From a virus (Duplodnaviria; Heunggongvirae; Uroviricota; Caudoviricetes): DNA of 37,692 nt. Under the pieces are notes generated by a model. It saw only the letters and a program-made list of their open reading frames with translations, had not been told where the DNA came from and ran no database searches. Positions 23,445 through 36,004 of this stretch are shown piece by piece. The first letter of the stretch is position 1; each line of letters opens with the position of its first letter. The position numbers were made by a program, and so were the translations under genes. The stretch lies in the IMG/VR virus record IMGVR_UViG_2541047799_000005; one strand, 5' to 3'.

Positions 23445-24053
23445 TTATTGCAACAGATTCTGACGGAAATATGGTAACACACGACTCCACTTATCATCCT
23501 GCCACGGTTGGAATTTTACATGCGCCGTTTCTCTGGCAAGGATTTCTCGCGCCCTGTTGAGTATCCGAGGATATTCTTGTTCGATTGAAGTGAATCTACC
23601 TGCTTCGCGATGCTCTGCGACCTGAAGAAGGGGCGTAACGTTCTGGCAGGCGGTTAACATCGTATCACTTGCTCGCCATAACCAGGCGAGTGTGCAAAGT
23701 TCGTTATCAGTGAATTGTTTTGTGATTGGGGATTGTTGAACTTCTCGATCGAGAATATCCAGAACCCAGCGGCGGAATTCTTTGGCCACAGGAGTACGAG
23801 CAAACATGGCGATCAAATGGGCTCCGCGAAGGCTAAATACTCGAGACTCCTGCATTCCACGAGGGGTGGTCACTTTGACCACCCTTGTCATCATATCTGT
23901 GAATTCATCTGAGTGCCGAGAGTAAATGCGCTGAACTGCTTTATCGTCCGCATATTCCAGTGCTAAACCAACTTCAGTGGCAGTAAGCCAAATTCTGTTA
24001 TTGTGGCAAATCGGGGTAAACGTCGTTTTGTGGAATGCTAATTGAGTAGTCAT
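23445..24053 (-). CDS. Bro-N/AntA-like DNA-binding protein (antirepressor or Roi-like)
   Basis: 202-aa ORF; N-terminal pattern F..F..I...IWLTATEVGLALEY...AKEFRRWVLDIL is typical of Bro-N/antirepressor N-domains; nin-region location like HK022 roi. Confidence 0.45.
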   Translation of the reverse strand: MTTQLAFHKTTFTPICHNNRIWLTATEVGLALEYADDKAVQRIYSRHSDEFTDMMTRVVKVTTPRGMQESRVFSLRGAHLIAMFARTPVAKEFRRWVLDILDREVQQSPITKQFTDNELCTLAWLWRASDTMLTACQNVTPLLQVAEHREAGRFTSIEQEYPRILNRAREILARETAHVKFQPWQDDKWSRVLPYFRQNLLQ

Positions 24054-24472
24054 AGTATCACCTCATCAGGTTAACCATCACCACCAACGACGCCAATCGA
24101 CTGGTGGTGAACTGTGTAAGGTTGGCGTAACCGGCTACTCAAACCCGGCGCTTCCGAAGAAGCCCTCACACAGCCCACCATAATTTGGGCATAGCCGTGC
24201 TTAGCGCACAAAAAAACCGCTTAACGCGGTATGCGTTGAGTAGTATCCCGGGACGCCAATCCCGTGTGCCGATTTTGCGGCAACGCACAGAATATAGCGC
24301 CGGATAAATCATGTCGTCAACCCCAGTAAATGGACACCATGATGATCACATCCATAGCTGCTACAACAGTTACAACTACCTCAGGCCAAAACATAACGAT
24401 TTCCATATCACCTTTAGCCGCCAGACGAATAGAGACTCCCAATTCTGGCTGTCGAAGTAAAACACCGAATGT

Positions 24473-24557: not shown

Positions 24558-25866
24558 ACCCCACCACCGGGTGTTCAGGCCGACAGTAACTATATTATTC
24601 CCTACTGATTTTTGAAAATCAAAGGTCTTTATACGTCACACGAGAGCAAATATTTCCGAAGAAGAAACCTTTCACCTTGAAAGGATAAAGAGTTCATTTC
24701 ATAAATTGAAATATTCAATAAGAATATTGCAAAAAATGAAATTATTTACTAGCGAGTCTATCTAACTGATAATTATGAAGATTGTAAGCGGTAGCAATCA
24801 CCCGCATACACATTGAACAGGATTTAATACAAAACGTCTTAAATTGTCCGTAAGGAATAGCACGAATGACTCAAACTCCTCTATTACTTGCAATCATATT
24901 TTTATTGGTTGTTCTTGTTCTTTATATAGCTGCAATCAAACGCATCAAAAAAATACAATTAGAATTAAGTGATAGCAATCAAAAAAATGAAGAATACAAA
25001 TCTCGCTTTGCAGATTATTTTAATGTAGAAGAAGAATGTAAGAAGCTTATTGAGAAAACAGAGCAAGAATGCTCCATAATAAAAGAAGAATCCCTAAAAG
25101 TAAAAGAAAATGCCAATAATGAACTAACAAACACCATTGAAAAAATGGATGGTATCAATAAACAAATCCAAGAGCTAAGAAGAACTTATAAAGAGAAGAA
25201 AGAAATATATGATAAACTAGTAAGGCAAATTTCTATTTATTCAGAAGATGTTGAGCTAGCCGAACTAGGATTTTACGAACCTCATTTTAATTTTGAAGAT
25301 TCAGAGCAATTTAAAAACAAAATAAAATCCATCAGGGATGAACAGAAATTAATGCTGCGGGATAAAACCCACTCTGGCGCAGTATATTGTACAACCCAAT
25401 GGACTGTTGAAGGCTCTCGAGCAGAGGGTAAAAAAATGACAGACAGAAATATCAGGCTAACTACTAGAGCATTTAATAATGAATGTGATGCTGCAATTAG
25501 CAATTGCACGTGGAAAAACATCACTAAAATGGAAGAACGCATCACAAAGGCATTTGAGGCCATAAATAAACTAAACGAGCAAAATCACATATATATAAAC
25601 ACTAAATACCTCAATAAAAAACTTGAGGAATTGTGGCTTACCCATGAATATCGTGAGCAAAAACAGAAAGAAAAAGAAGAACAGGCAGAAATAAGGGCAC
25701 AAATGAGAGAGGAGGAGCGTGCACAACGAGAAATAGAAAAGGCCATGCAAGACGCAGAGGCAGAAGAGCGCCGTTATAAAAAAGCAATTGAAGCTGCAAG
25801 AAAGGAAATGGAAAAAGTTACTGGTGACATGAAGCAGCGCCTCGAAAATCGGGTAATGACTCCAAC

Positions 25867-26370
25867 TTACTGATAGTGTTTTATGTTCAGATAATGCCCG
25901 ATGACCTTGTCATGCAGCTCCACCGATTTTGAGAACGACAGTGACTTCCGTCCCAGCCTTGCCAGATGTTGTCTCAGATTCAGGTTATGCCGCTCAATTC
26001 GCTGAGTGTAACGCTTGCTGATTACGTGCAGCTTTCCCTTCAGGCGGGATTCATACAGCGGCCAGCCATCCGTCATCCATACCACGACCTCAAAGGCCGA
26101 CAGCAGGCTTAGAAGACGCTCCAGTGTGGCCAGAGTGCGTTCACCGAATACGTGCGCAACAACCGTCTTCCGGAGCCTGTCATACGCGTAAAACAGCCAG
26201 CGCTGGCGCGATTTAGCCCCGACGTATCCCCACTGTTCGTCCATTTCCGCGCAGACGATGACGTCACTGCCCGGCTGTATGCGCGAGGTTACCGACTGCG
26301 GCCTGAGTTTTTTAAATGGCGGAAAATCGTGTTGAGGCCAACGCCCATAATGCGGGCGGTTGCCCGGCAT
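25867..26370 (-). CDS. insB: IS1 InsB (made as an InsAB' frameshift fusion)
   Basis: 167-aa ORF ...[62 protein letters not shown]... matching recalled IS1 InsB. Confidence 0.95.
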
Positions 26371-26564: not shown

Positions 26565-27392
26565 TGGAGCACCTCAAAAACACCATCATACACTAAATCA
26601 GTAAGTTGGCAGCATCACCGAAAATCGCATTGCCGAACTAGAACAGAGTTTGTCGCAGGCTGAATCAAAGCATCAAAGAGCATTATCCATGGCACAACAA
26701 ACCAAACAAGGTCATGTTTATATTATTTCGAACATAGGTTCTTTTGGGGAGAATGTTTATAAAATAGGCATGACACGACGTCTTGATCCGCAAGACCGTG
26801 TAAATGAGCTCGGTGATGCATCTGTTCCTTTTATTTTTGATGTACATGCCATGATTTATTCGGAGGACGCTCCATCATTAGAAAAAAAACTACATGATGT
26901 CTTCGATAAAAAGAGAGTCAATCTTGTAAATCGTAGAAAAGAGTTTTTCTATGTTACTCTGGATGAGATCAAAGAAGCTGTTAAAAAACACTCTGATTCA
27001 GAAATTGAATTTATTGAGACAGCAGTCGCAAAAGACTTTAATGAGTCATTGGCTATTCGTAATCATGAAAATAAAAAAAGTGACAACAGCAACTCATCAA
27101 TTATACCTGAGCGAAAAACCCCAGAGTTTGCAGATGCAATTTAATTAATTTGTAGTAGCAATAAAGCAGGCATCGTTGAGAATATTTTGTCAGCGATGCT
27201 TACTTCTCTAACAAAAACGGTGATTACCAACGAACTAACGGACTTCAGGTAATCATAAGACAAATGGAACGACTCTCCGGTGATTAGATCCCTGCAATAA
27301 CAGTAATTTTCTACTAACTGAAAAATCTTTAACTGCCGCTCCTATTTCTAAGCTGACTGCTAGATTACATGGTGTGTTACCGATGAAAACCG

Positions 27393-28393: not shown

Positions 28394-29319
28394 AGATCCA
28401 CCCCGTAAATCCAGTCAGTGTTTGTCAGGTCGAGTTTTGGTTTGCCGACTGTCACGCCAGCCTGTTGCTTGTTCCGGTTGATTTCGAGCTGGGTCCACTT
28501 GTCGCGGAGTTTGGCCGGACTCAGCACGTTACCGGACCAGAAGTTGTCCTGGCAGGCCCAGCGGAACAGCACGCACATGTCGCGGTGGTTACGTCCGTCA
28601 CGTTCACGCATCAGGCGGATATCGTTAGCCCACCCAGCAAAATTCGGTTTTCTGGCTGATGGTGCGATAGTCTTCACCATGTCAAACATCCACTCTGCGG
28701 CGGTCAGGTCTTCTGCTGTCCCCCACTTGCTGCCGCTCTGAATTGCAGCATCCGGTTTCACCACAGGAAGATCGTTTTCTGGCTGGTCAGAGGATTCGCC
28801 AGAATTCTCGGACGAAAAAGGTTTTATATTGTCTTTTGTTAGTTTGTCTTTTGTGTTTACCTGATTCGGGTAAACGCCTTTACCTGATTTGGGTAAACTT
28901 TTCTTACCTGATTCAGGTAAATTTACCTCTTTCAGGTAAACTTTATTTTTCTTACCTGATTCGGGTAATGTTGACCATTCACTGACCACATTATTAATGC
29001 CGATATTCCGCCCGCTCTGAATAAGAATCCCACGCTTTACCAGAACGCTTTTTGCAGCAGAACACTTGTGCGGCAATATCCCGGTCAATTCGGAAAGTTG
29101 CTCGTTGCTCACCCAATCCAGTTTTTTATTAAAGCCATATGTTTTGCGCATGACAGCCAGGAAGACCAGAAGCTGGTGCTGTGTTAATCCGGCCAGCATC
29201 ACAGCTTCCAGCAACTCATTTGCAATGCGCGTATAACCATCATCGAGATCTGCCACGCGCGGCTCCTTTTGTGCCGCATCCGGCACTGGAAAATTGAATA
29301 TCTCAGCAGTGTTTGCCAT
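28390..29319 (-). CDS. O: Replication initiator O: divergent N-terminal iteron-binding domain, lambda-like C-terminal P-interaction domain
   Basis: Start set at MANTAEIFNF (ATG 29317-29319, GGAGG RBS); C-terminal ...KWGTAEDLTAAEWMFDMVKTIAPSARKPNFAGWANDIRLMRERDGRNHRDM... matches recalled lambda O; ori iterons lie inside the gene. Confidence 0.85.
   Translation of the reverse strand: MANTAEIFNFPVPDAAQKEPRVADLDDGYTRIANELLEAVMLAGLTQHQLLVFLAVMRKTYGFNKKLDWVSNEQLSELTGILPHKCSAAKSVLVKRGILIQSGRNIGINNVVSEWSTLPESGKKNKVYLKEVNLPESGKKSLPKSGKGVYPNQVNTKDKLTKDNIKPFSSENSGESSDQPENDLPVVKPDAAIQSGSKWGTAEDLTAAEWMFDMVKTIAPSARKPNFAGWANDIRLMRERDGRNHRDMCVLFRWACQDNFWSGNVLSPAKLRDKWTQLEINRNKQQAGVTVGKPKLDLTNTDWIYGVDL
28857..28970. 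repeat. ori: Replication origin iterons (five ~19-bp O-binding repeats) inside O, with an AT-rich stretch at 28815-28856
   Basis: tttacctgattcgggtaaac, tttacctgatttgggtaaac, cttacctgattcaggtaaat, ttacctctttcaggtaaac, cttacctgattcgggtaatg; each has inverted ends TTACC...GGTAA. Confidence 0.8.
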
Positions 29320-29405: not shown

Positions 29406-29945
29406 TCATATCGCCCCCAGCATGGTAGTAACCATCGCCATCAATGGACCAGCCAGATCTGGGTCCACACGAAACATCGATACAATACCTTCACTAATTT
29501 CCTTCAGTTTCTGGTGGCGTGGTGCGTTGAGAATGACAGCCTGTTTTGCCTCACTGAGTTCCTTTTCCATTTCAGCCAACCTAGCCATGAAGCTATCCTG
29601 CTCAACCAGGTAACCGCGATATTCCAGCGGTAGTACCGCCAGAATTGCCGGGGTCAGTTCACGCACGTTATTTCGGTATTTTTCAGAATCGAATTTGTTA
29701 TCGAGGAAGCGGAACAGCTTCTGGCGTGCACGGCTGACATCATCAGGGAAATCGATGGTGCCGCCGCCCTGCTCCCGATACTCATTCACAATGAGTGTGG
29801 CAACGACATCCTGATTATCTACAGCCGACCAGGCGCGGACGGCATCACGGATTTTTTCGTGGCCTGGCACCTGTTTTGTTTGAGAACGATTTATCACCGC
29901 AGTCGGGCTAAATCCGCTAGTCTGTTGGTATGGAAGTGGTTGCAT
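29406..29945 (-). CDS. cII-position regulatory protein (possibly the 186-type / CP76 CII family)
   Basis: 179-aa ORF between cro and O on the early-right strand; family assignment is from position and recollection only. Confidence 0.35.
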   Translation of the reverse strand: MQPLPYQQTSGFSPTAVINRSQTKQVPGHEKIRDAVRAWSAVDNQDVVATLIVNEYREQGGGTIDFPDDVSRARQKLFRFLDNKFDSEKYRNNVRELTPAILAVLPLEYRGYLVEQDSFMARLAEMEKELSEAKQAVILNAPRHQKLKEISEGIVSMFRVDPDLAGPLMAMVTTMLGAI

Positions 29946-30014
29946 AATTGACTCCTTTAGTTTGAATTGACTGTTAAGTTGATTGCTTATTGTTAAAGAG
30001 CGTGAAATGGAAAT

Positions 30015-30245
30015 TTAAGCTGCGTTCTTTTCGGTGTGTGGAAACAACTTCGGAAGATCCGGGCGAATCTGGTATGCCTTCACTACTCCACCAGTAGCCG
30101 TAACAATGCTGCCGACATGTTCAGGGGATACCTTTGCTTTGTTGTGAAGCCACTTATAGACGGCCTGCTGTGAAACTTCGCAAGCAGCGCCCAGTTTCTT
30201 TTGTGAACCAACGATATTGATCGCTGTTTTGATAGCTGGGTTCAT
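30015..30245 (-). CDS. cro: Cro-like HTH repressor
   Basis: 76-aa ORF with HTH KLGAACEVSQQAVYKWLHN; GGAGG RBS; divergent from the cI-like gene across an operator region. Confidence 0.75.
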   Translation of the reverse strand: MNPAIKTAINIVGSQKKLGAACEVSQQAVYKWLHNKAKVSPEHVGSIVTATGGVVKAYQIRPDLPKLFPHTEKNAA

Positions 30246-30349
30246 AACAACCTCCGTGGTTAATTTGAATCAAGATTAAAACTATGGTTGTTTTTAGTCA
30301 ACAACCATTTTCGTTTGATGGAATAAAACCTTGGTTGTACATTTGGACT
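30246..30349. promoter_or_regulatory. OR region: pR (minus strand, -35 TTGACT, 17-nt spacer, -10 TAATCT) overlapping a 17-bp operator AAAACAACCATAGTTTT; further ACAACC/GGTTGT half-sites; presumed pRM
   Basis: Minus-strand reading ...ggttgTTGACTaaaaacaaccatagtttTAATCTtgattc... about 25 nt upstream of the cro ATG. Confidence 0.55.
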
Positions 30350-31039
30350 ATGAAAACAACACTCTCAGAAAGACTTAAAGAAGCCAGATTAGCGCGAGGC
30401 CTTACACAAAAGGCGCTTGGGGATTTGGTCGGGGTTAGCCAGGCTGCTATTCAGAAAATCGAAACAGGGAAAGCTAATCAAACAACTAAAATCGTGGAGA
30501 TCGCGAACGCTTTGGGTGTGCGCGCAGAATGGTTATCTTCTGGCGTTGGAAATATGTCAGACAGTACAGTGCAACCAATACAATCAACTGTCAGCCATTC
30601 CAAATACTTCAAGATTGACGTTCTTGATATAGAAGTCAGTGCTGGGCCGGGAGTCATCAACCGTGAGTTTGTAGAAGTTCTACGCTCGGTTGAGTACTCG
30701 TTTGACGATGCTCGTCACATGTTCGATGGTAGGAAGGCGGAAAATATCCGCATCATTAACGTGCGTGGTGACAGCATGTCAGGAACGATCGAACCAGGTG
30801 ATCTGCTGTTCGTTGATATCACAGTTAAATCTTTCGACGGTGATGGTATCTATGCGTTTCTGTACGACGACACAGCCCATGTAAAGCGCCTGCAAATGAT
30901 GAAGGATAAGCTGCTGGTCATCTCTGATAACAAAAGCTACTCACCGTGGGACCCGATCGAGAAAGACGAGATGAACCGGGTGTTCATCTTCGGTAAGGTT
31001 ATTGGGAGCATGCCGCAGACGTACAGGAAGCATGGTTAA
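30350..31039 (+). CDS. cI: CI-type prophage repressor (HTH_XRE plus S24 LexA-like autopeptidase domain)
   Basis: Start chosen at MKTTLSERLKEARLARGLTQKALGDLVGVSQAAIQKIETGK...; C-terminal ...GDSMSGTIEPGDLLFVD...HVKRL... is S24-like; no SD before this ATG, suggesting a leaderless start as for lambda cI. Confidence 0.8.
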   Translation: MKTTLSERLKEARLARGLTQKALGDLVGVSQAAIQKIETGKANQTTKIVEIANALGVRAEWLSSGVGNMSDSTVQPIQSTVSHSKYFKIDVLDIEVSAGPGVINREFVEVLRSVEYSFDDARHMFDGRKAENIRIINVRGDSMSGTIEPGDLLFVDITVKSFDGDGIYAFLYDDTAHVKRLQMMKDKLLVISDNKSYSPWDPIEKDEMNRVFIFGKVIGSMPQTYRKHG

Positions 31040-31120
31040 TAATTAGCCTGTAGCTTTTTAAGGCACACTCTTTTCAAGAATATTAAATAGAACACTATAT
31101 GGCATAAACAAGGACTTAGG

Positions 31121-31594
31121 ATGGAAAAGCCTAGCTTCCCACCTCTTCTTACAGCAGGATTTCATGATATGGATAGTGATGGCATCAAGTCTCTTTGTGT
31201 CGACACCTTCCCAAAATCCGTTAGAAGAAGTATGCTATACTGTAATTTTATACAGCTTATTGAGCAATTTAAACTTGTTAATCAGCAGTGTCTATGTTTC
31301 TCTGAAGTGTGGATCGATGGTTCATTCACTACAGAGAAACCTGAACCTGATGACATAGATATACTCGTGGTCGTCGATTATTTGGCCCTAAACTCTTTGC
31401 CAAACACGCTGATGCCATTGGTCAGCTCATTGTTAAATAGAGATTTTATTAAAGAAAACTACAGCATTGACGTTCTTTTGCTGCCTGAAAATCATCCAGA
31501 AATCGATTATAGTGAAAGGCGAAGTTACTGGAGAGGGTGGTTTGGTTTTGATCGGAAGGAGAATCCTAAAGGCCTCGTGAGGGTAATGTTATGA
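31121..31594 (+). CDS. Small protein with a minimal nucleotidyltransferase-fold signature; first gene of a two-gene cargo operon at the rexAB position
   Basis: 157-aa ORF containing WIDGSFTTEKPEPDDIDILVVVD (G67-S68, nine residues, then D-I-D-I), the Pol-beta-type NTase pattern; AGGA RBS; AT-rich; stop overlaps the next gene's start (ATGA). Confidence 0.5.
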   Translation: MEKPSFPPLLTAGFHDMDSDGIKSLCVDTFPKSVRRSMLYCNFIQLIEQFKLVNQQCLCFSEVWIDGSFTTEKPEPDDIDILVVVDYLALNSLPNTLMPLVSSLLNRDFIKENYSIDVLLLPENHPEIDYSERRSYWRGWFGFDRKENPKGLVRVML

Positions 31595-32523
31595 GCGAAG
31601 AAAAAACATTCAACTCCCTCAAGGAGCGAATTGCGTTCATTCAACGCGATGTGGATCTGCTTGCTCAAAATAAGGGGAGATCATTTGCTGATGACATTAT
31701 ATTTAGATCACTTGACTCCCATCTGAGCGATCTCCGAGAGAGACAACGTGCAATCGATAACCAACATCCTTTACGTGATTTCATGGAGTTGAGATTAAAA
31801 GGTGTTTTGGTCGATTTCGGGTCTATTCCGTTAGATATTCTATCTGTAATTTCAGGTAATCTCGCATCCCTTGTACAGAAAGCAGTTTACCGACTTGGAT
31901 CTGGGAAAGATTCTAGTCGTGTGCCGATTGATGTTAAAAAATCATTAGACATGAGATTGGCAGACTTGCGTCCAGGTTCGACGAAGTTAGGTGTTACTTT
32001 TTCTACTGGTTCTTGCGAGCTCATCGAAACAGTATCCAGTCATGCTGTTAAGGAGATTTTTGCACTACTCTCATCCATTGATGAAGAAACATTCACGGCT
32101 AAAATTGCCGAAATTGGTTCGCAATCAACAGCTAACCTAAAAAACATCATAAATGAGTGCGAAAAATATAGTCTTAACTTTGATCTTACTTGGATTGGAC
32201 CTTTAAGTGATGGTACCAGACAAGTGTCAATTTCTTCAGAAGATATAAAAAAACTGAATGCTCGCTTAGCTTTAACGAAGGTCATTCAGCTACCGGATGA
32301 GCATATATCAGGCGAACTTGCTATTTTATCCATGTACGGGAAATTGGAGATTGCAAGCGAGCTTGGAAAAATAAAGGCTTCTTATCCGATTGATATGTTA
32401 GGAGAAATTCAAAGTAAATATAAAGTTGGTGAACGAATATCGCTCGTAGTAAGCGTTTCTGAGATTCACAATGAAAGATTAGGAACATCACGACGTAACT
32501 ACATGGTTAAAAAAATCGAATAG
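31591..32523 (+). CDS. Hypothetical 310-aa soluble protein, translationally coupled partner of the NTase-like gene
   Basis: ATGA start/stop overlap at 31591-31594; no TM segment and no domain I can recognise by eye; AT-rich; followed by an intrinsic terminator. Confidence 0.5.
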   Translation: MSEEKTFNSLKERIAFIQRDVDLLAQNKGRSFADDIIFRSLDSHLSDLRERQRAIDNQHPLRDFMELRLKGVLVDFGSIPLDILSVISGNLASLVQKAVYRLGSGKDSSRVPIDVKKSLDMRLADLRPGSTKLGVTFSTGSCELIETVSSHAVKEIFALLSSIDEETFTAKIAEIGSQSTANLKNIINECEKYSLNFDLTWIGPLSDGTRQVSISSEDIKKLNARLALTKVIQLPDEHISGELAILSMYGKLEIASELGKIKASYPIDMLGEIQSKYKVGERISLVVSVSEIHNERLGTSRRNYMVKKIE

Positions 32524-32530
32524 TGATGCT

Positions 32531-32559
32531 ACCCGGCCACCGTGCCGGGTTTTCTTTTG
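32531..32559 (+). terminator. Intrinsic terminator ending the cI-cargo transcript (tIMM-like)
   Basis: ACCCGGC-CACCGT-GCCGGGT hairpin followed by TTTCTTTTG. Confidence 0.65.
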
Positions 32560-32639
32560 CCCTCCCCTCATCACACACACCGTTAAAAAAACCACCATAA
32601 CCTCGCTTCAGTTATCGCTATGCGATTCAAGTCACAAAA

Positions 32640-32730
32640 TAAATCCATCCTAAATACAACCAGTTATATCTAAAACAACCAATAAAACAACTTTTGTTGT
32701 TGACGATAAAACAACTATAGTTTTAAATAA
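32640..32730 (+). promoter_or_regulatory. OL region with candidate pL (-35 TTGACG 32700-32705, 17-nt spacer, -10 TTAAAT) overlapping operator AAAACAACTATAGTTTT; upstream palindrome ACAACTTTTGTTGT
   Basis: Near-identical to the pR/OR1 unit (TTGACG-ataaaacaactatagtt-TTAAAT versus TTGACT-aaaaacaaccatagttt-TAATCT). Confidence 0.55.
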
Positions 32731-32921
32731 GTTCATCGCAACAACACAACGATACGGCAACTACCTGATTCACCGTTGCGATGACCGCTTAGATCCGCAG
32801 CTTGAATTTCAGCAGGCTTCGGGGAGTGCGAGGGATGAAACGGACGCGTGAACGTCGGTGTGACCAGCTGAAATCAACTCAACATTTCATACCTTAGTCG
32901 CTTCAACGAGGCGGCTTAGTT

Positions 32922-33212
32922 ATGACAACCGGCGGCCATCCACCGCCTGAATACGCGCAGAAGTCTTTATATGTTCAGCAGCCCAGCTTACGGGCAGGAG
33001 TTTTTATGGTTCATCAACATTACGGAACGCAGACCGTTAATCGCGGTGCGGTCATGCCAGGAATGCTGGTCAAACGCAAAGATGGTACCTGGACTGCATC
33101 AGCTAATTTACGCGGACGACTTTATCTGCATCGCGGCATTGAGCGCACTTATACCCGTGACTTGCTCGTGGAAGTTTTTCTCGACGGACGCGGCAACGGT
33201 CTGAATCACTAA
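32922..33212 (+). CDS. Hypothetical early-left protein (unknown; no N-like arginine-rich motif)
   Basis: 96-aa ORF between pL and gam; may not be a real gene. Confidence 0.3.
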   Translation: MTTGGHPPPEYAQKSLYVQQPSLRAGVFMVHQHYGTQTVNRGAVMPGMLVKRKDGTWTASANLRGRLYLHRGIERTYTRDLLVEVFLDGRGNGLNH

Positions 33213-33287
33213 TCCCCTTTCCTGTTTTCCGAATCAGCCTGGCATTCCGCGGGCGATTTTTTCACAGCCATTTTCAGGAGTTCAGCC

Positions 33288-33584
33288 ATGAACGCTTATT
33301 ACATTCAGGATCGTCTTGAGGCTCAGAGCTGGGCGCGTCACTACCAGCAGATCGCCCGTGAAGAGAAAGAGGCAGAACTGGCAGACGACATGGAAAAAGG
33401 CCTGCCCCAGCACCTGTTTGAATCGCTATGCATCGATCATTTGCAACGCCACGGGGCCAGCAAAAAAGCCATTACCCGTGCGTTTGATGACGATGTTGAG
33501 TTTCAGGAGCGCATGGCAGAACACATCCGGTACATGGTTGAAACCATTGCTCACCACCAGGTTGATATTGATTCAGAGGTATAA
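33288..33584 (+). CDS. gam: Gam (RecBCD inhibitor), short GamS-type form
   Basis: 98-aa [59 protein letters not shown]... matching recalled lambda Gam. Confidence 0.9.
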
Positions 33585-33589
33585 AACGG

Positions 33590-34375
33590 ATGAGTACAGC
33601 ACTCGCAACGCTGGCAGGGAAGCTGGCTGAACGTGTCGGCATGGATTCTGTCGACCCACAGGAACTGATCACCACTCTTCGCCAGACGGCATTTAAAGGT
33701 GATGCCAGCGATGCGCAGTTCATCGCATTACTGATCGTTGCCAACCAGTACGGCCTTAATCCATGGACGAAAGAAATTTACGCCTTTCCTGATAAGCAGA
33801 ATGGCATCGTTCCGGTGGTGGGCGTTGATGGCTGGTCCCGCATCATCAATGAAAACCAGCAGTTTGATGGTATGGACTTTGAGCAGGACAATGAATCCTG
33901 CACATGCCGGATTTACCGCAAGGACCGCAATCATCCGATCTGCGTTACCGAGTGGATGGATGAATGCCGCCGCGAACCATTCAAAACCCGCGAAGGCAGA
34001 GAAATCACCGGACCGTGGCAGTCGCATCCCAAACGGATGTTACGTCATAAAGCCATGATTCAGTGTGCCCGTCTGGCCTTCGGATTTGCTGGTATCTATG
34101 ACAAGGATGAAGCCGAGCGCATTGTCGAAAATACCGCATACACTGCAGAACGTCAGCCGGAACGCGACATCACTCCGGTTAACGATGAAACCATGCAGGA
34201 GATTAACACTCTGCTGATCGCCCTGGATAAAACATGGGATGACGACTTATTGCCGCTCTGTTCCCAGATATTTCGCCGCGACATTCGCGCATCGTCAGAA
34301 CTGACACAGGCCGAAGCAGTGAAAGCTCTTGGATTCCTGAAACAGAAAGCCACTGAGCAGAAGGTGGCAGCATGA
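33590..34375 (+). CDS. bet: Red-beta single-strand annealing protein Bet
   Basis: 261-aa [69 protein letters not shown]... matching recalled lambda Bet. Confidence 0.95.
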
Positions 34376-35052
34376 CACCGGACATTATCCTGCAGCGTAC
34401 CGGGATCGACGTGAGAGCTGTCGAACAGGGGGATGATGCATGGCACAAATTACGGCTCGGCGTCATCACCGCTTCAGAAGTTCACAACGTGATAGCAAAG
34501 CCCCGCTCAGGAAAGAAGTGGCCTGACATGAAAATGTCCTACTTCCACACCCTGCTGGCTGAGGTTTGCACCGGTGTGGCTCCGGAAGTTAATGCTAAGG
34601 CGCTGGCCTGGGGAAAACAGTACGAGAACGACGCCAGAGCCCTGTTTGAGTTTACTTCCGGCGTGAATGTTACTGAATCCCCGATCATCTATCGCGACGA
34701 AAGTATGCGCACCGCCTGCTCTCCCGATGGTTTATGCAGTGACGGCAACGGCCTTGAACTGAAATGCCCGTTTACCTCCCGGGATTTCATGAAATTCCGG
34801 CTCGGTGGTTTCGAGGCCATAAAGTCGGCTTACATGGCCCAGGTGCAGTACAGCATGTGGGTGACGCGAAAAGATGCCTGGTACTTTGCCAACTATGACC
34901 CACGAATGAAGCGTGAAGGCCTGCATTATGTCGTGGTTGAGCGGGATGAAAATTACATGGCGAGTTTTGACGAGATGGTGCCGGAGTTCATCGAAAAAAT
35001 GGACGAGGCACTGGCTGAAATTGGTTTTGTATTTGGGGAGCAATGGCGATGA
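34372..35052 (+). CDS. exo: Lambda exonuclease (Red-alpha)
   Basis: 226-aa [47 protein letters not shown]... matching recalled lambda Exo. Confidence 0.95.
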
Positions 35053-35231: not shown

Positions 35232-35395
35232 GAACGAGTATTGAGATGGCACATAGCCTTGCTCAAATTGGAGTCAGGTTTGTGCCAATACCAGTAGAAA
35301 CAGACGAAGAATTTCATACGTTAGCCGCATCCCTTTCACAAAAGCTGGAAATGATGGTGGCGAAAGCAGAAGCAGATGAGAGAGACCCGGTATGA
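35204..35395 (+). CDS. Lambda orf63-like small protein
   Basis: 63-aa ORF in the lambda b-region position. Confidence 0.6.
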   Translation: MHKASPVELRTSIEMAHSLAQIGVRFVPIPVETDEEFHTLAASLSQKLEMMVAKAEADERDPV

Positions 35396-35475
35396 CAGCC
35401 ACGGAATGCATTTTTCTGGCAGCGGGCTTCATATTCTGTGTGCTTATGCTTGCCGACATGGGACTTGTTCAATGA
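35392..35475 (+). CDS. Candidate 27-aa hydrophobic micro-protein, translationally coupled on both sides
   Basis: MTATECIFLAAGFIFCVLMLADMGLVQ; its ATG overlaps the orf63 stop (ATGA) and its stop overlaps the next ATG (ATGA). Confidence 0.35.
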   Translation: MTATECIFLAAGFIFCVLMLADMGLVQ

Positions 35476-35693
35476 CACCTCAGCAGGAAAACGCCCTTCG
35501 CAGCATTGCCCGTCAGGCTAATTCTGAAATCAAAAAAGCCAGACAGCAGTTTCCGGATAAAAACGTCGATGACATTTGCCGTAGCGTACTGAAGAAGCAC
35601 CGTGAAACGGTAACGCTGATGGGATTCACACCGACTCATTTAAGCCTGGCGATCGGCATGTTAAACGGCGTCTTTAAGGAACGGTTAACATGA
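35472..35693 (+). CDS. Lambda orf61-like small protein
   Basis: 73-aa ORF MTPQQENALRSIARQANSEIKKARQQFPDKNVDD... in the lambda orf61 position. Confidence 0.55.
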   Translation: MTPQQENALRSIARQANSEIKKARQQFPDKNVDDICRSVLKKHRETVTLMGFTPTHLSLAIGMLNGVFKERLT

Positions 35694-35785
35694 AAAGCAA
35701 AATCATCAGGGAGCTACAGGCTCCTTTTTTATTGTTCGCATTCATCCTCAAGCGTATTAACCAACAATTCAGGGATTAATGGAAG

Positions 35786-36004
35786 ATGGCAGACATCATT
35801 GATTCAGCATCAGAAATCGAAGAATTACAGCGCAATACAGCAATAAAAATGCGTCGTCTGAACTACCAGACTGTATCCGCAACTCATTGTTGTGAGTGTG
35901 GCGATCCGATAGATGAGCGAAGACGCCTGGCTGTTCAGGGTTGTCGGACTTGTGCAAGTTGCCAGGAGGAGATCGAACTTAAGAACAAACAATGGGGACT
36001 ATGA
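35786..36004 (+). CDS. TraR/DksA-family C4 zinc-finger protein (lambda Orf73-like)
   Basis: 72-aa ORF with CxxC...CxxC (HCCECGDPIDERRRLAVQGCRTCASC). Confidence 0.7.
   Translation: MADIIDSASEIEELQRNTAIKMRRLNYQTVSATHCCECGDPIDERRRLAVQGCRTCASCQEEIELKNKQWGL

Follow-up and report, generated by a model that had tools for sequence, protein, structure and literature searches.

The window analysed here is a 37,692-nucleotide (nt) stretch of DNA from a Caudoviricetes virus (IMG/VR record IMGVR_UViG_2541047799_000005), and the subject of this analysis is the interval between its early-left promoter pL and the gene gam. On balance, we consider it probable that this is an early-left operon without the N/tL1 module, read by RNA polymerase unaided into kil, gam, bet and exo. 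The absence of the module is evident from the anatomy of the locus, and unaided transcription would be its functional consequence. The gene kil is preceded by an RNA element (32888-32947, on the + strand, which here corresponds to the leftward direction of lambda) that recurs upstream of kil in other phages. In 11 of 12 carriers of this element, which were found without reference to terminators, a hairpin and a T-run directly precede its CATACC motif. Only the window family lacks that terminator, and GCTGAAATCAACTCAACATTT adjoins CATACC instead. The pre-element terminator of phi80 is annotated as tL1A and follows the N gene, and in HK639, CobraSix and S9-5 the corresponding terminator comes after both putL and the first genes. 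A simple pattern scan predicted no intrinsic terminator on the + strand from 32550 to 33155, and thus none between pL and kil. Phages with an early antiterminator thus have a terminator before the element, whereas the window family has neither, which points to an operon lacking the N/tL1 module. The initial annotation of this DNA had offered an HK022 put-like RNA, an unrecognised N analogue or an operon that simply lacks antitermination; with the terminator of the other 11 carriers absent and none predicted between pL and kil, the last of the three fits best.

The promoter pL and its repressor operators occupy 32671-32729 (+). The -35 element is TTGACG (32700-32705), followed by an imperfect -10 element (TTAAAT/TAAATA, about 32723-32729), because of which pL is absent from the list of a simple promoter scan. 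Two 17-nt direct operator repeats overlap the promoter (ATAAAACAACTTTTGTT, 32682-32698, and ATAAAACAACTATAGTT, 32706-32722), and over the 19 nt of 32708-32726, complementarity to the pR operator (30276-30294) reaches 95%. These features identify pL as a repressor-controlled promoter with a predicted transcript start near 32735. From its -10 element to the gam ATG (33288) we measured about 560 nt, in line with the approximately 550 bp initially given for this compact interval. The only + strand open reading frames (ORFs) of at least 60 aa in it are a 96-aa ORF (32922-33212), which contains kil, and an overlapping, out-of-frame ORF of 77 aa. A non-coding stretch, the pL leader, covers about 32735-33005; kil (33006-33212, +, 68 aa, with GGAG before its start), gam (33288-33584, +; phrog_259, E = 1.2e-60, with a RefSeq annotation), bet (33590-34375, +) and exo (34372-35052, +) follow in that order. 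A weak terminator-like hairpin between kil and gam (33237-33254, +) consists of a 5-bp stem and an 8-nt loop followed by GATTTTTT. Its T-run is interrupted in phage 4A7, and the kil-gam intergenic sequence also precedes gam in lambda-type phages.

The element upstream of kil was revealed by aligning the kil-upstream DNA of HK225 and Klebsiella phage KO-TP1, which share a block that starts at 32885. An nhmmer profile found the block in phi80, HK639, CobraSix and S9-5 and in prophages of Huaxiibacter, Citrobacter, Siccibacter and another enterobacterium. Loci carrying the element were fetched via the Kil gene, not via the element itself, and the resulting alignment (A8) comprises 12 phages and prophages. 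All 12 share one layout: CAUAC, a variable hairpin with loop-proximal ...UUC/GAG..., (U)UAGUUAUGA, a second helix and, later, GCGCAGAAGUCUU. In the window, helix 1 (32888-32924) is a 15-pair imperfect hairpin flanked by CAUAC...GUUAUGA that encloses a Shine-Dalgarno-like GAGG (32909-32912) and ATG 32922, and helix 2 (32931-32947) is a GGCGG/CCGCC stem with the loop CYAUCCA. In A8, 94.5% of the cells form standard pairs compared to 83.5% in shuffles, and seven pairs show compensatory changes on both sides. The covariation score was 0.328 against 0.136 in shuffles, none of 500 reaching it, and at most 0.076 when the partners were slid. Helix 2 is nearly invariant in the 12 sequences and therefore offers no covariation to count. 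A covariance model (R2) scored the window copy, which is the single copy in the window, at 85 bits, those of phi80 and HK639 at 72-77 bits and that of HK225 at 86 bits. It also found 29 further IMG/VR copies with extra compensatory variants, such as GCAAC/GUUGC and GAAAC/GUUUC. The pattern used to collect the IMG/VR loci (TTTTTCATAC...TTATGA) was loose, the element being present in 29 of the first 100 of 120 loci, and it has the association with a terminator within this set built in. An Rfam search of 29800-33400 at E values up to 10 returned nothing except a spurious microRNA match. The covariation shows that the last third of the leader (32888-32947) is an RNA element of defined structure, which many lambdoid phages have in common. 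In those phages it heads the cIII/kil segment, right behind a strong intrinsic terminator by which the N-proximal or put-proximal part of the operon is closed. A structured leader had been suspected around 32740-32920; conserved structure across related prophages does exist, but at 32888-32947 and not in the part that had been emphasised. The element is no substitute for N or put, because it is also found in phages that have one or the other.

R2 also matches weakly just before cIII, at 33477-33521 of lambda (15 bits, E = 0.006) and in HK022 (18 bits). There, a U-run comes after the hairpin AACGCUUCACUCGAGGCGUU, which resembles an intrinsic terminator. The ea10-cIII hairpin of lambda is presumably among the tL2 sites that Luk and Szybalski reported. 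The terminator tL2a, source of the small RNA PreS, has been placed between ral and ea10 (preprint 10.1101/2024.10.31.621285). P22 has the order terminator, CATATCC, a different hairpin and c3. The annotators of HK639 marked the equivalent of helix 2 with its T-run as a terminator, whereas no T-run follows helix 2 in the window. The RNA element upstream of cIII or kil appears to be undescribed as a family and to occur in lambda-, phi80-, P22- and HK022-type phages, which makes it a testable candidate regulator of a toxic gene.

A profile search with the 96-aa ORF, proposed at the outset, matched phrog_294 ('Kil protein for bacterial septation inhibition') with E = 2.4e-38. The match spans positions 4-80 of the 83-position profile and corresponds to 32979-33212. 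The ORF encodes Kil, a predicted cell-division inhibitor. The initial annotation had correctly noted that it carries no N-like arginine-rich motif, but had not noticed what it is. For strain 118UI, RefSeq has WP_000233582.1 at exactly the coordinates of kil (33006-33212), a product of 68 aa that begins with ATG 33006 and is named 'phage encoded cell division inhibitor protein'; the 68-aa call is also found in phage 4A7 and HK225. The protein is 74-84% identical to the annotated Kil of HK225, KO-TP1 and S9-5. For locus retrieval, an alignment of seven Kil sequences was too divergent, and a four-sequence alignment worked.

The in-frame extension upstream of kil (32922-33005, +; 28 codons, MTTGGHPPP...) is probably untranslated or a leader ORF and not part of the Kil protein. 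RefSeq gives it no annotation, and all three of its codon positions are equally constrained. The first nine codons from ATG 32922 are common to 8 of the 12 carriers, including phi80, HK225, HK639 and KO-TP1, in which the ORFs from that ATG stop after 20-28 codons. The downstream motif GCGCAGAAGTCTT is kept in three different frames relative to ATG 32922 among the 12 carriers. A conserved leader peptide MTTGGHPPP was considered and rejected, as insertions and deletions alter the peptide in four carriers (the S9-5, CobraSix, MGYG and Siccibacter loci), two of them with a frame shift. Because these changes affect the peptide while the downstream motif persists in three frames, the constraint appears to act on the RNA and not on a peptide. 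In annotations of such prophages, long "Kil" ORFs are over-calls, and with the terminator absent a missing N need not be sought. Independent deletions in several E. coli prophages (P0001-P0003; L162, 4001-4216) begin within or just after the GGCGGCCATCCACCGCC hairpin. They leave MTTGG, MTTGGH or MTTGGHPPPE followed by unrelated sequence and remove kil and more, which suggests recurrent loss of the toxic gene at that site.

Searches against PHROGs and Pfam found no match to an N family among the ORFs of the pL and pR early regions, which agrees with the earlier impression that no N is recognisable. The search for boxA and boxB elements proposed with it gave the same picture: in the leader (32735-33005) there is no boxA within three mismatches, the best candidate (CGCTTAGA) matching five of nine positions, and no GC-stem pentaloop hairpin of the boxB type was seen. 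On the - strand, a boxA-like sequence (CGCTCTTTAACAA, 29990-30002) lies in the nutR position, 12 nt past the cro stop codon. It differs from the rrn boxA consensus by one mismatch, the window has no other match this close, and there is no boxB hairpin after it. All relatives of this immunity type carry it, and neither of the two other types that share the leader does. This sequence could recruit NusB/NusE against Rho without N.

RNA of the HK022 put type acts through the beta-prime zinc-binding domain of RNA polymerase, and rpoC Y75N blocks growth that relies on it. To look for put RNA, the putL and putR sites of HK022 were taken from the genome with boundaries according to the numbering of Hwang et al. 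2022 (PMC9378689), and homologues were found by BLAST in phiEt88, UPF_BP1, HK639, S9-5, CobraSix and PdC23, giving ten put RNAs in total. Base pairs of stem II covary clearly in their alignment. Both an nhmmer profile and a covariance model (R1) recovered all 10 sites (nhmmer E = 1e-9 to 4e-21). With nhmmer, neither the window nor any of four further loci, taken as relatives or for comparison (L001, L002, L004 and L005), gave a match up to E 10. With R1 and its filters off, the best match in the window was off-target (E = 0.72), the + strand of the leader was empty, nothing relevant was found in the relatives, and no putR-like second copy was detected in the pR operon. The comparison with putL and putR that had been suggested thus finds the known sites and none in the leader, which argues against an HK022 put-like RNA. 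A resemblance of GGATGAAACGG to the put sequence GGATGAACGG was upheld by neither method. The only repeat shared by the leader and the pR operon is a 15-mer with one mismatch (CGCAGCTTrAATTTC, in the leader and after cro); about 1.7 such repeats are expected by chance by our own estimate, and it is absent with the other immunity types, so it was discarded. In its own record, HK639 carries a 126-nt putL-like RNA (L126, 3508-3633) and an 'M3-like RNA' after cII (L129, 1011-1070), and its cro-cII spacer is only 30 nt long, the same as in 4A7.

The pL-kil-gam interval is present in 16 phage records at 87-98% identity, and no annotated N was found among them. Plaque-forming carriers are 4A7, Lambda_4C10 (genus Bievrevirus), IdasGreatGrand, Turner, Perceval, 1W, 3W and the PhiR phages. 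Relatives are annotated with cI, cargo genes, Kil and Gam, without N. The leader of this very common E. coli lambdoid prophage family was found in 2,238 of 5,426 complete E. coli genomes, and strain 118UI is identical to the window across the 274-nt leader query (32737-33010). Because the same interval sits in plaque-forming phages and in so many E. coli genomes, the N-less architecture evidently works. Among 95 distinct IMG/VR relatives, one leader is combined with three operator/immunity types: the pL operator stretch is swapped in relatives with other immunity, with both flanks unchanged. The breakpoint coincides with the transcription start (32737) for two immunity types and lies at 32769 for the O157 type.

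Upstream of the RNA element, the leader can be divided into sections A (32737-32795) and B (32796-32884), which were found only in E. coli loci. Nucleotide diversity (pi) in the leader is 0.023-0.039, against 0.072-0.078 for the kil-gam spacer and the third codon positions of kil, which suggests that the leader is under constraint. Section A includes most of a 5' stem (32734-32783, +) that starts at about +1 of the pL transcript. The inverted repeat CGCAAC...GTTGCG noted initially is indeed present there and extends to 9 bp (CATCGCAAC, 32734-32742, and GTTGCGATG, 32775-32783), enclosing 32 nt. This stem folds better than shuffles (z = -2.4, 4 of 200 shuffles), and its diversity is near neutral (pi 0.069). 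In the O157-type variant the 5' arm is replaced, homology beginning at 32769, so the stem is not obligatory in the conserved module. Section B is peculiar to the E. coli family; it holds a long-range stem (TTGAATTTCAGC/GCTGAAATCAA) and an arginine-rich mini-ORF, and its pi is 0.039 compared to 0.078 at kil third codon positions and 0.072 in the kil-gam spacer. The folding energy was no better than chance for the whole leader (z = -0.14) or for 32796-32880 (z = -0.22). In 32809-32842, 26 of 33 positions agree with the part of the lambda N leader immediately 3' of boxB (8 of 300 shuffles), at the same offset from the pL start (+75 to +108; nhmmer E = 7). Origin of the leader from a lambda nutL/N leader by decay is only a lead; lambda-type leaders were too uniform for building a profile. 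Likeness of section B to the GC-rich leader of phi80 and HK225 was not above shuffles. The first approximately 20 nt of the pL transcripts are alike (CATCGnAACnAnACAnCGA) in phi80, HK225, KO-TP1, HK639 and the window family, and the rest differs (L004, 2245-2320; L005, 2845-2920; L126, 3435-3480; window, 32734-32755). The similarity is not significant and may reflect a recombination joint or a shared initial-transcript feature.

In the arrangement we propose, the N/nutL/tL1 module would have been lost or never acquired. Polymerase starting at pL would cross the leader of about 270 nt into kil, gam, bet and exo without a dedicated antiterminator. The retained RNA element would most likely leave RNA polymerase unmodified, and helix 1, with GAGG and AUG enclosed, would most likely tune the toxic kil, whether by masking its translation, by attenuating weakly or by serving as a processing site. 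Such an operon is predicted to place kil, gam, bet and exo under immediate, repressor-only control after induction. The pL-gam interval does not account for rightward transcription reaching Q. Several points weigh against the proposed operon. On the pR-to-Q path (24100-24282 and 23445-24053, both -), the C4 antisense RNA (74.8 bits) and the Hfq-binding RNA isrK (58.7 bits), the only Rfam matches elsewhere in the window, lie directly upstream of an Ant-type anti-repressor gene; both bring terminators between pR and Q, and that of isrK (24216-24230) would need read-through from pR. Further down the left operon, a strong intrinsic terminator (AGGGAGCTACAGGCTCCTT then TTTTATTGTT, 35708-35726, +) stands between an ORF (35376-35693) and a dksA/traR-like gene at 35786, ahead of xis and int; in 4A7 it does not occupy this place. 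These terminators may still call for a read-through mechanism. Rho-dependent termination in the 270-nt untranslated leader is not predictable with the tools used, and the C/G ratio there is only 1.5-1.7. The terminator predictions come from a simple pattern scan. Finally, sections A and B are constrained though without an assigned function.

One explanation assigns them a function as a new cis-acting antiterminator RNA (32737-32884), an analogue of put unrelated in sequence, directed at terminators such as 35708-35726. We regard this as unlikely. The segment does occupy the position of putL directly after pL, travels with three immunity regions with a breakpoint at the transcription start and shows reduced diversity (pi 0.039 vs 0.078); terminators exist further down the operon, and the family lacks every known early antiterminator. 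On the other side, folding is at shuffle level (z = -0.22 to +0.73), there are no divergent homologues and hence no covariation evidence, no counterpart lies downstream of pR, the O157-type variant is without the first 33 nt, and relatives such as 4A7 do not keep the position of the terminator seen here at 35708-35726. A device of about 150 nt at 32737-32884, made of RNA or of RNA and the mini-peptide, that renders pL polymerase resistant to termination seems to us marginally less probable again; if real, it would be a third solution beside N/nut and put, in about 40% of E. coli genomes. The mini-ORF itself (32802-32897, +; 31 aa, KRTRERRCDQLK) starts at TTG 32802 or ATG/GTG 32835, ends with TAG at 32895-32897 and is in the same frame as Kil; the initial statement that no arginine-rich motif is present concerned the 96-aa ORF, and this ORF upstream of it was overlooked. 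It could be read as a miniature or unrecognised N-like antiterminator, either a stand-alone peptide or a long form fused to Kil, which we consider very improbable. Its RTRERR resembles the RRRERR of the arginine-rich motif of lambda N, it lies about 100 nt downstream of pL in the position of N, after GGGGAG, and its first, second and third codon positions have diversities of 0.039, 0.010 and 0.081. In 68 of the 95 relatives CAG replaces TAG and opens a frame of 125-136 aa from the arginine-rich ORF into Kil, the long form that several phage annotations call 'Kil'. However, the other 27 (28%, the window included) carry TAG, and these natural alleles already argue against an N-like peptide; the varying base falls in an internal loop of helix 1. 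Moreover, four relatives have frameshifts, the start codon varies (ATG 32835 is GTG in 79 of 95), and the common polymorphisms comprise 5 synonymous and 8 non-synonymous changes, one of them the stop codon. The likeness of RTRERR to the lambda motif is no better than that of shuffled peptides (93 of 500), database and tblastn searches found no homologue outside this E. coli family, and there is neither a family match nor a boxB-type hairpin upstream nor a family-wide nutR. The downstream half of the long form crosses the RNA element, which is intergenic in HK225 and phi80, and a peptide of 20-31 aa would lack the NusA- and polymerase-binding parts of N. Together with the identity of the 96-aa ORF as Kil, these results speak against an unrecognised N analogue.

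A leader acting as a Rho-dependent or translation-coupled attenuator, holding kil and the downstream genes low unless the ORF from ATG 32922 is translated or helix 1 is opened, is a possibility to which we give rather low but not negligible weight. It is compatible with an operon that lacks the N/tL1 module and would add a layer to it. Helix 1 encloses GAGG and AUG, the nine codons shared by 8 of 12 carriers include HPPP with its three prolines, and the leader is long, untranslated and C-rich at its 5' end (C/G 1.5). Proline-rich leader ORFs control mgtA and mgtCBR, and the kilR gene of the rac prophage is reportedly silenced by Rho (Cardinale et al. 2008). Conversely, the insertions and deletions of the S9-5, CobraSix, MGYG and Siccibacter loci change the peptide while the RNA stays conserved, the end of the ORF differs widely among carriers, and rut sites are not reliably callable here. 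We retain the operon without the N/tL1 module as the preferred explanation.

The remainder of the early region is of lambdoid layout. A cro-like gene (30015-30245, -) and a cI-like repressor gene (30284/30350-31039, +) are followed by two accessory genes (31121-31594 and 31591-32523, +) between cI and pL. Their products are a DUF6932 nucleotidyltransferase-like protein of 157 aa and a protein of 310 aa without known function, and both genes match the PADLOC candidate defence system PDC-M63 A/B (E = 7e-43 and 4e-42). The pair occupies the position of rexAB, where the cargo differs among relatives: a SIR2 protein in the O157 strain 644-PT8, and a hypothetical protein with an ASCH-domain protein in 4A7. 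The transcript of cI and the two cargo genes is ended by an intrinsic terminator directly upstream of pL (32531-32550, +; ACCCGGCCACCGTGCCGGGT then TTTTCTTTT), which is kept in relatives. Beyond exo, small genes and xis extend up to 36528 (+), and int runs from 36529 to the end of the window (+). In the nin region, a phrog_1847 gene is interrupted by an insertion sequence (IS) transposase gene (25867-26370, -, phrog_720) and divided into the parts 24866-25873 and 26650-27144, so this prophage copy is disrupted there. Five 20-nt iterons (TTTACCTGATTCGGGTAAAC and variants, 28852-28970) lie inside the O-like replication gene and presumably form the replication origin.

Textbooks explain early gene control in phages by the N/nut system of lambda, to which the put RNA of HK022 is the only known alternative based on RNA. 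N-less lambdoid phages are already known, HK022 and HK639 using put; the present family is a further variant that has neither N nor put and apparently lacks the terminator as well. It includes plaque-forming phages and occurs in some two fifths of the complete E. coli genomes, and the evidence favours the simplest solution, in which the terminator normally overcome by N or put is absent. We found no description of this arrangement in the literature, and literal sequence searches of the literature were also empty. For the N-less lambdoid phage LLS, the absence of N was noted and put was guessed (Genome Res 2025, PMC12315714).

Compared with lambda, the window has the same order of cI, rex-position genes, terminator, operator-controlled pL, kil-gam-bet-exo and, further on, xis-int, with gam, bet and exo of the lambda type, and its leader shows weak collinear similarity to the N leader at equal distance from the pL start. 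It differs in that N, boxB, the following terminator, ral, ea10 and cIII are missing and boxA is only degenerate (CGCTTAGA); pL and gam are about 2,350 nt apart in lambda, with N, ral, ea10, cIII and kil between them, and about 560 nt in the window. Like the put phages HK022 and HK639, it is an N-less lambdoid with a long non-coding stretch directly after pL, and the put carriers HK639, CobraSix and S9-5 share the kil-leader hairpin element and a related Kil. In contrast, the invariant put motifs GAACGGC, GTCGG, GGCGGG and CAAT, part of a two-stem consensus with an AGG loop, do not occur in order in the window, which also has no putR-like copy. In phi80 and HK225 (nutL, N, tL1A, tL1B, kil), the element at 32888-32947 and the 5' region of kil are homologous to those of the window, and the first approximately 20 nt of the pL transcript are alike (CATCGnAAC...), although not significantly. 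However, phi80 possesses boxA, a nut core and an N of 98 aa, with the tL1A hairpin right before the element, whereas in the window the leader comprises about 150 nt of unrelated sequence and lacks a hairpin with a T-run. The ea10-cIII hairpin of lambda resembles helix 1 in its CATACC, in a hairpin ending ...TTC/GAG..., in GTTATG and in its place directly upstream of the cIII/kil block; in lambda and HK022 a T-run follows and helix 2 is absent, whereas the window has the tail TTAGTTATGA and helix 2. A further parallel concerns terminators: the nin5 deletion, made in the laboratory in the right operon of lambda, confers N-independence through absent terminators. In both cases the absence of a terminator would make N dispensable, in nin5 by a laboratory deletion and in the window family as a natural, widespread state of the left operon.

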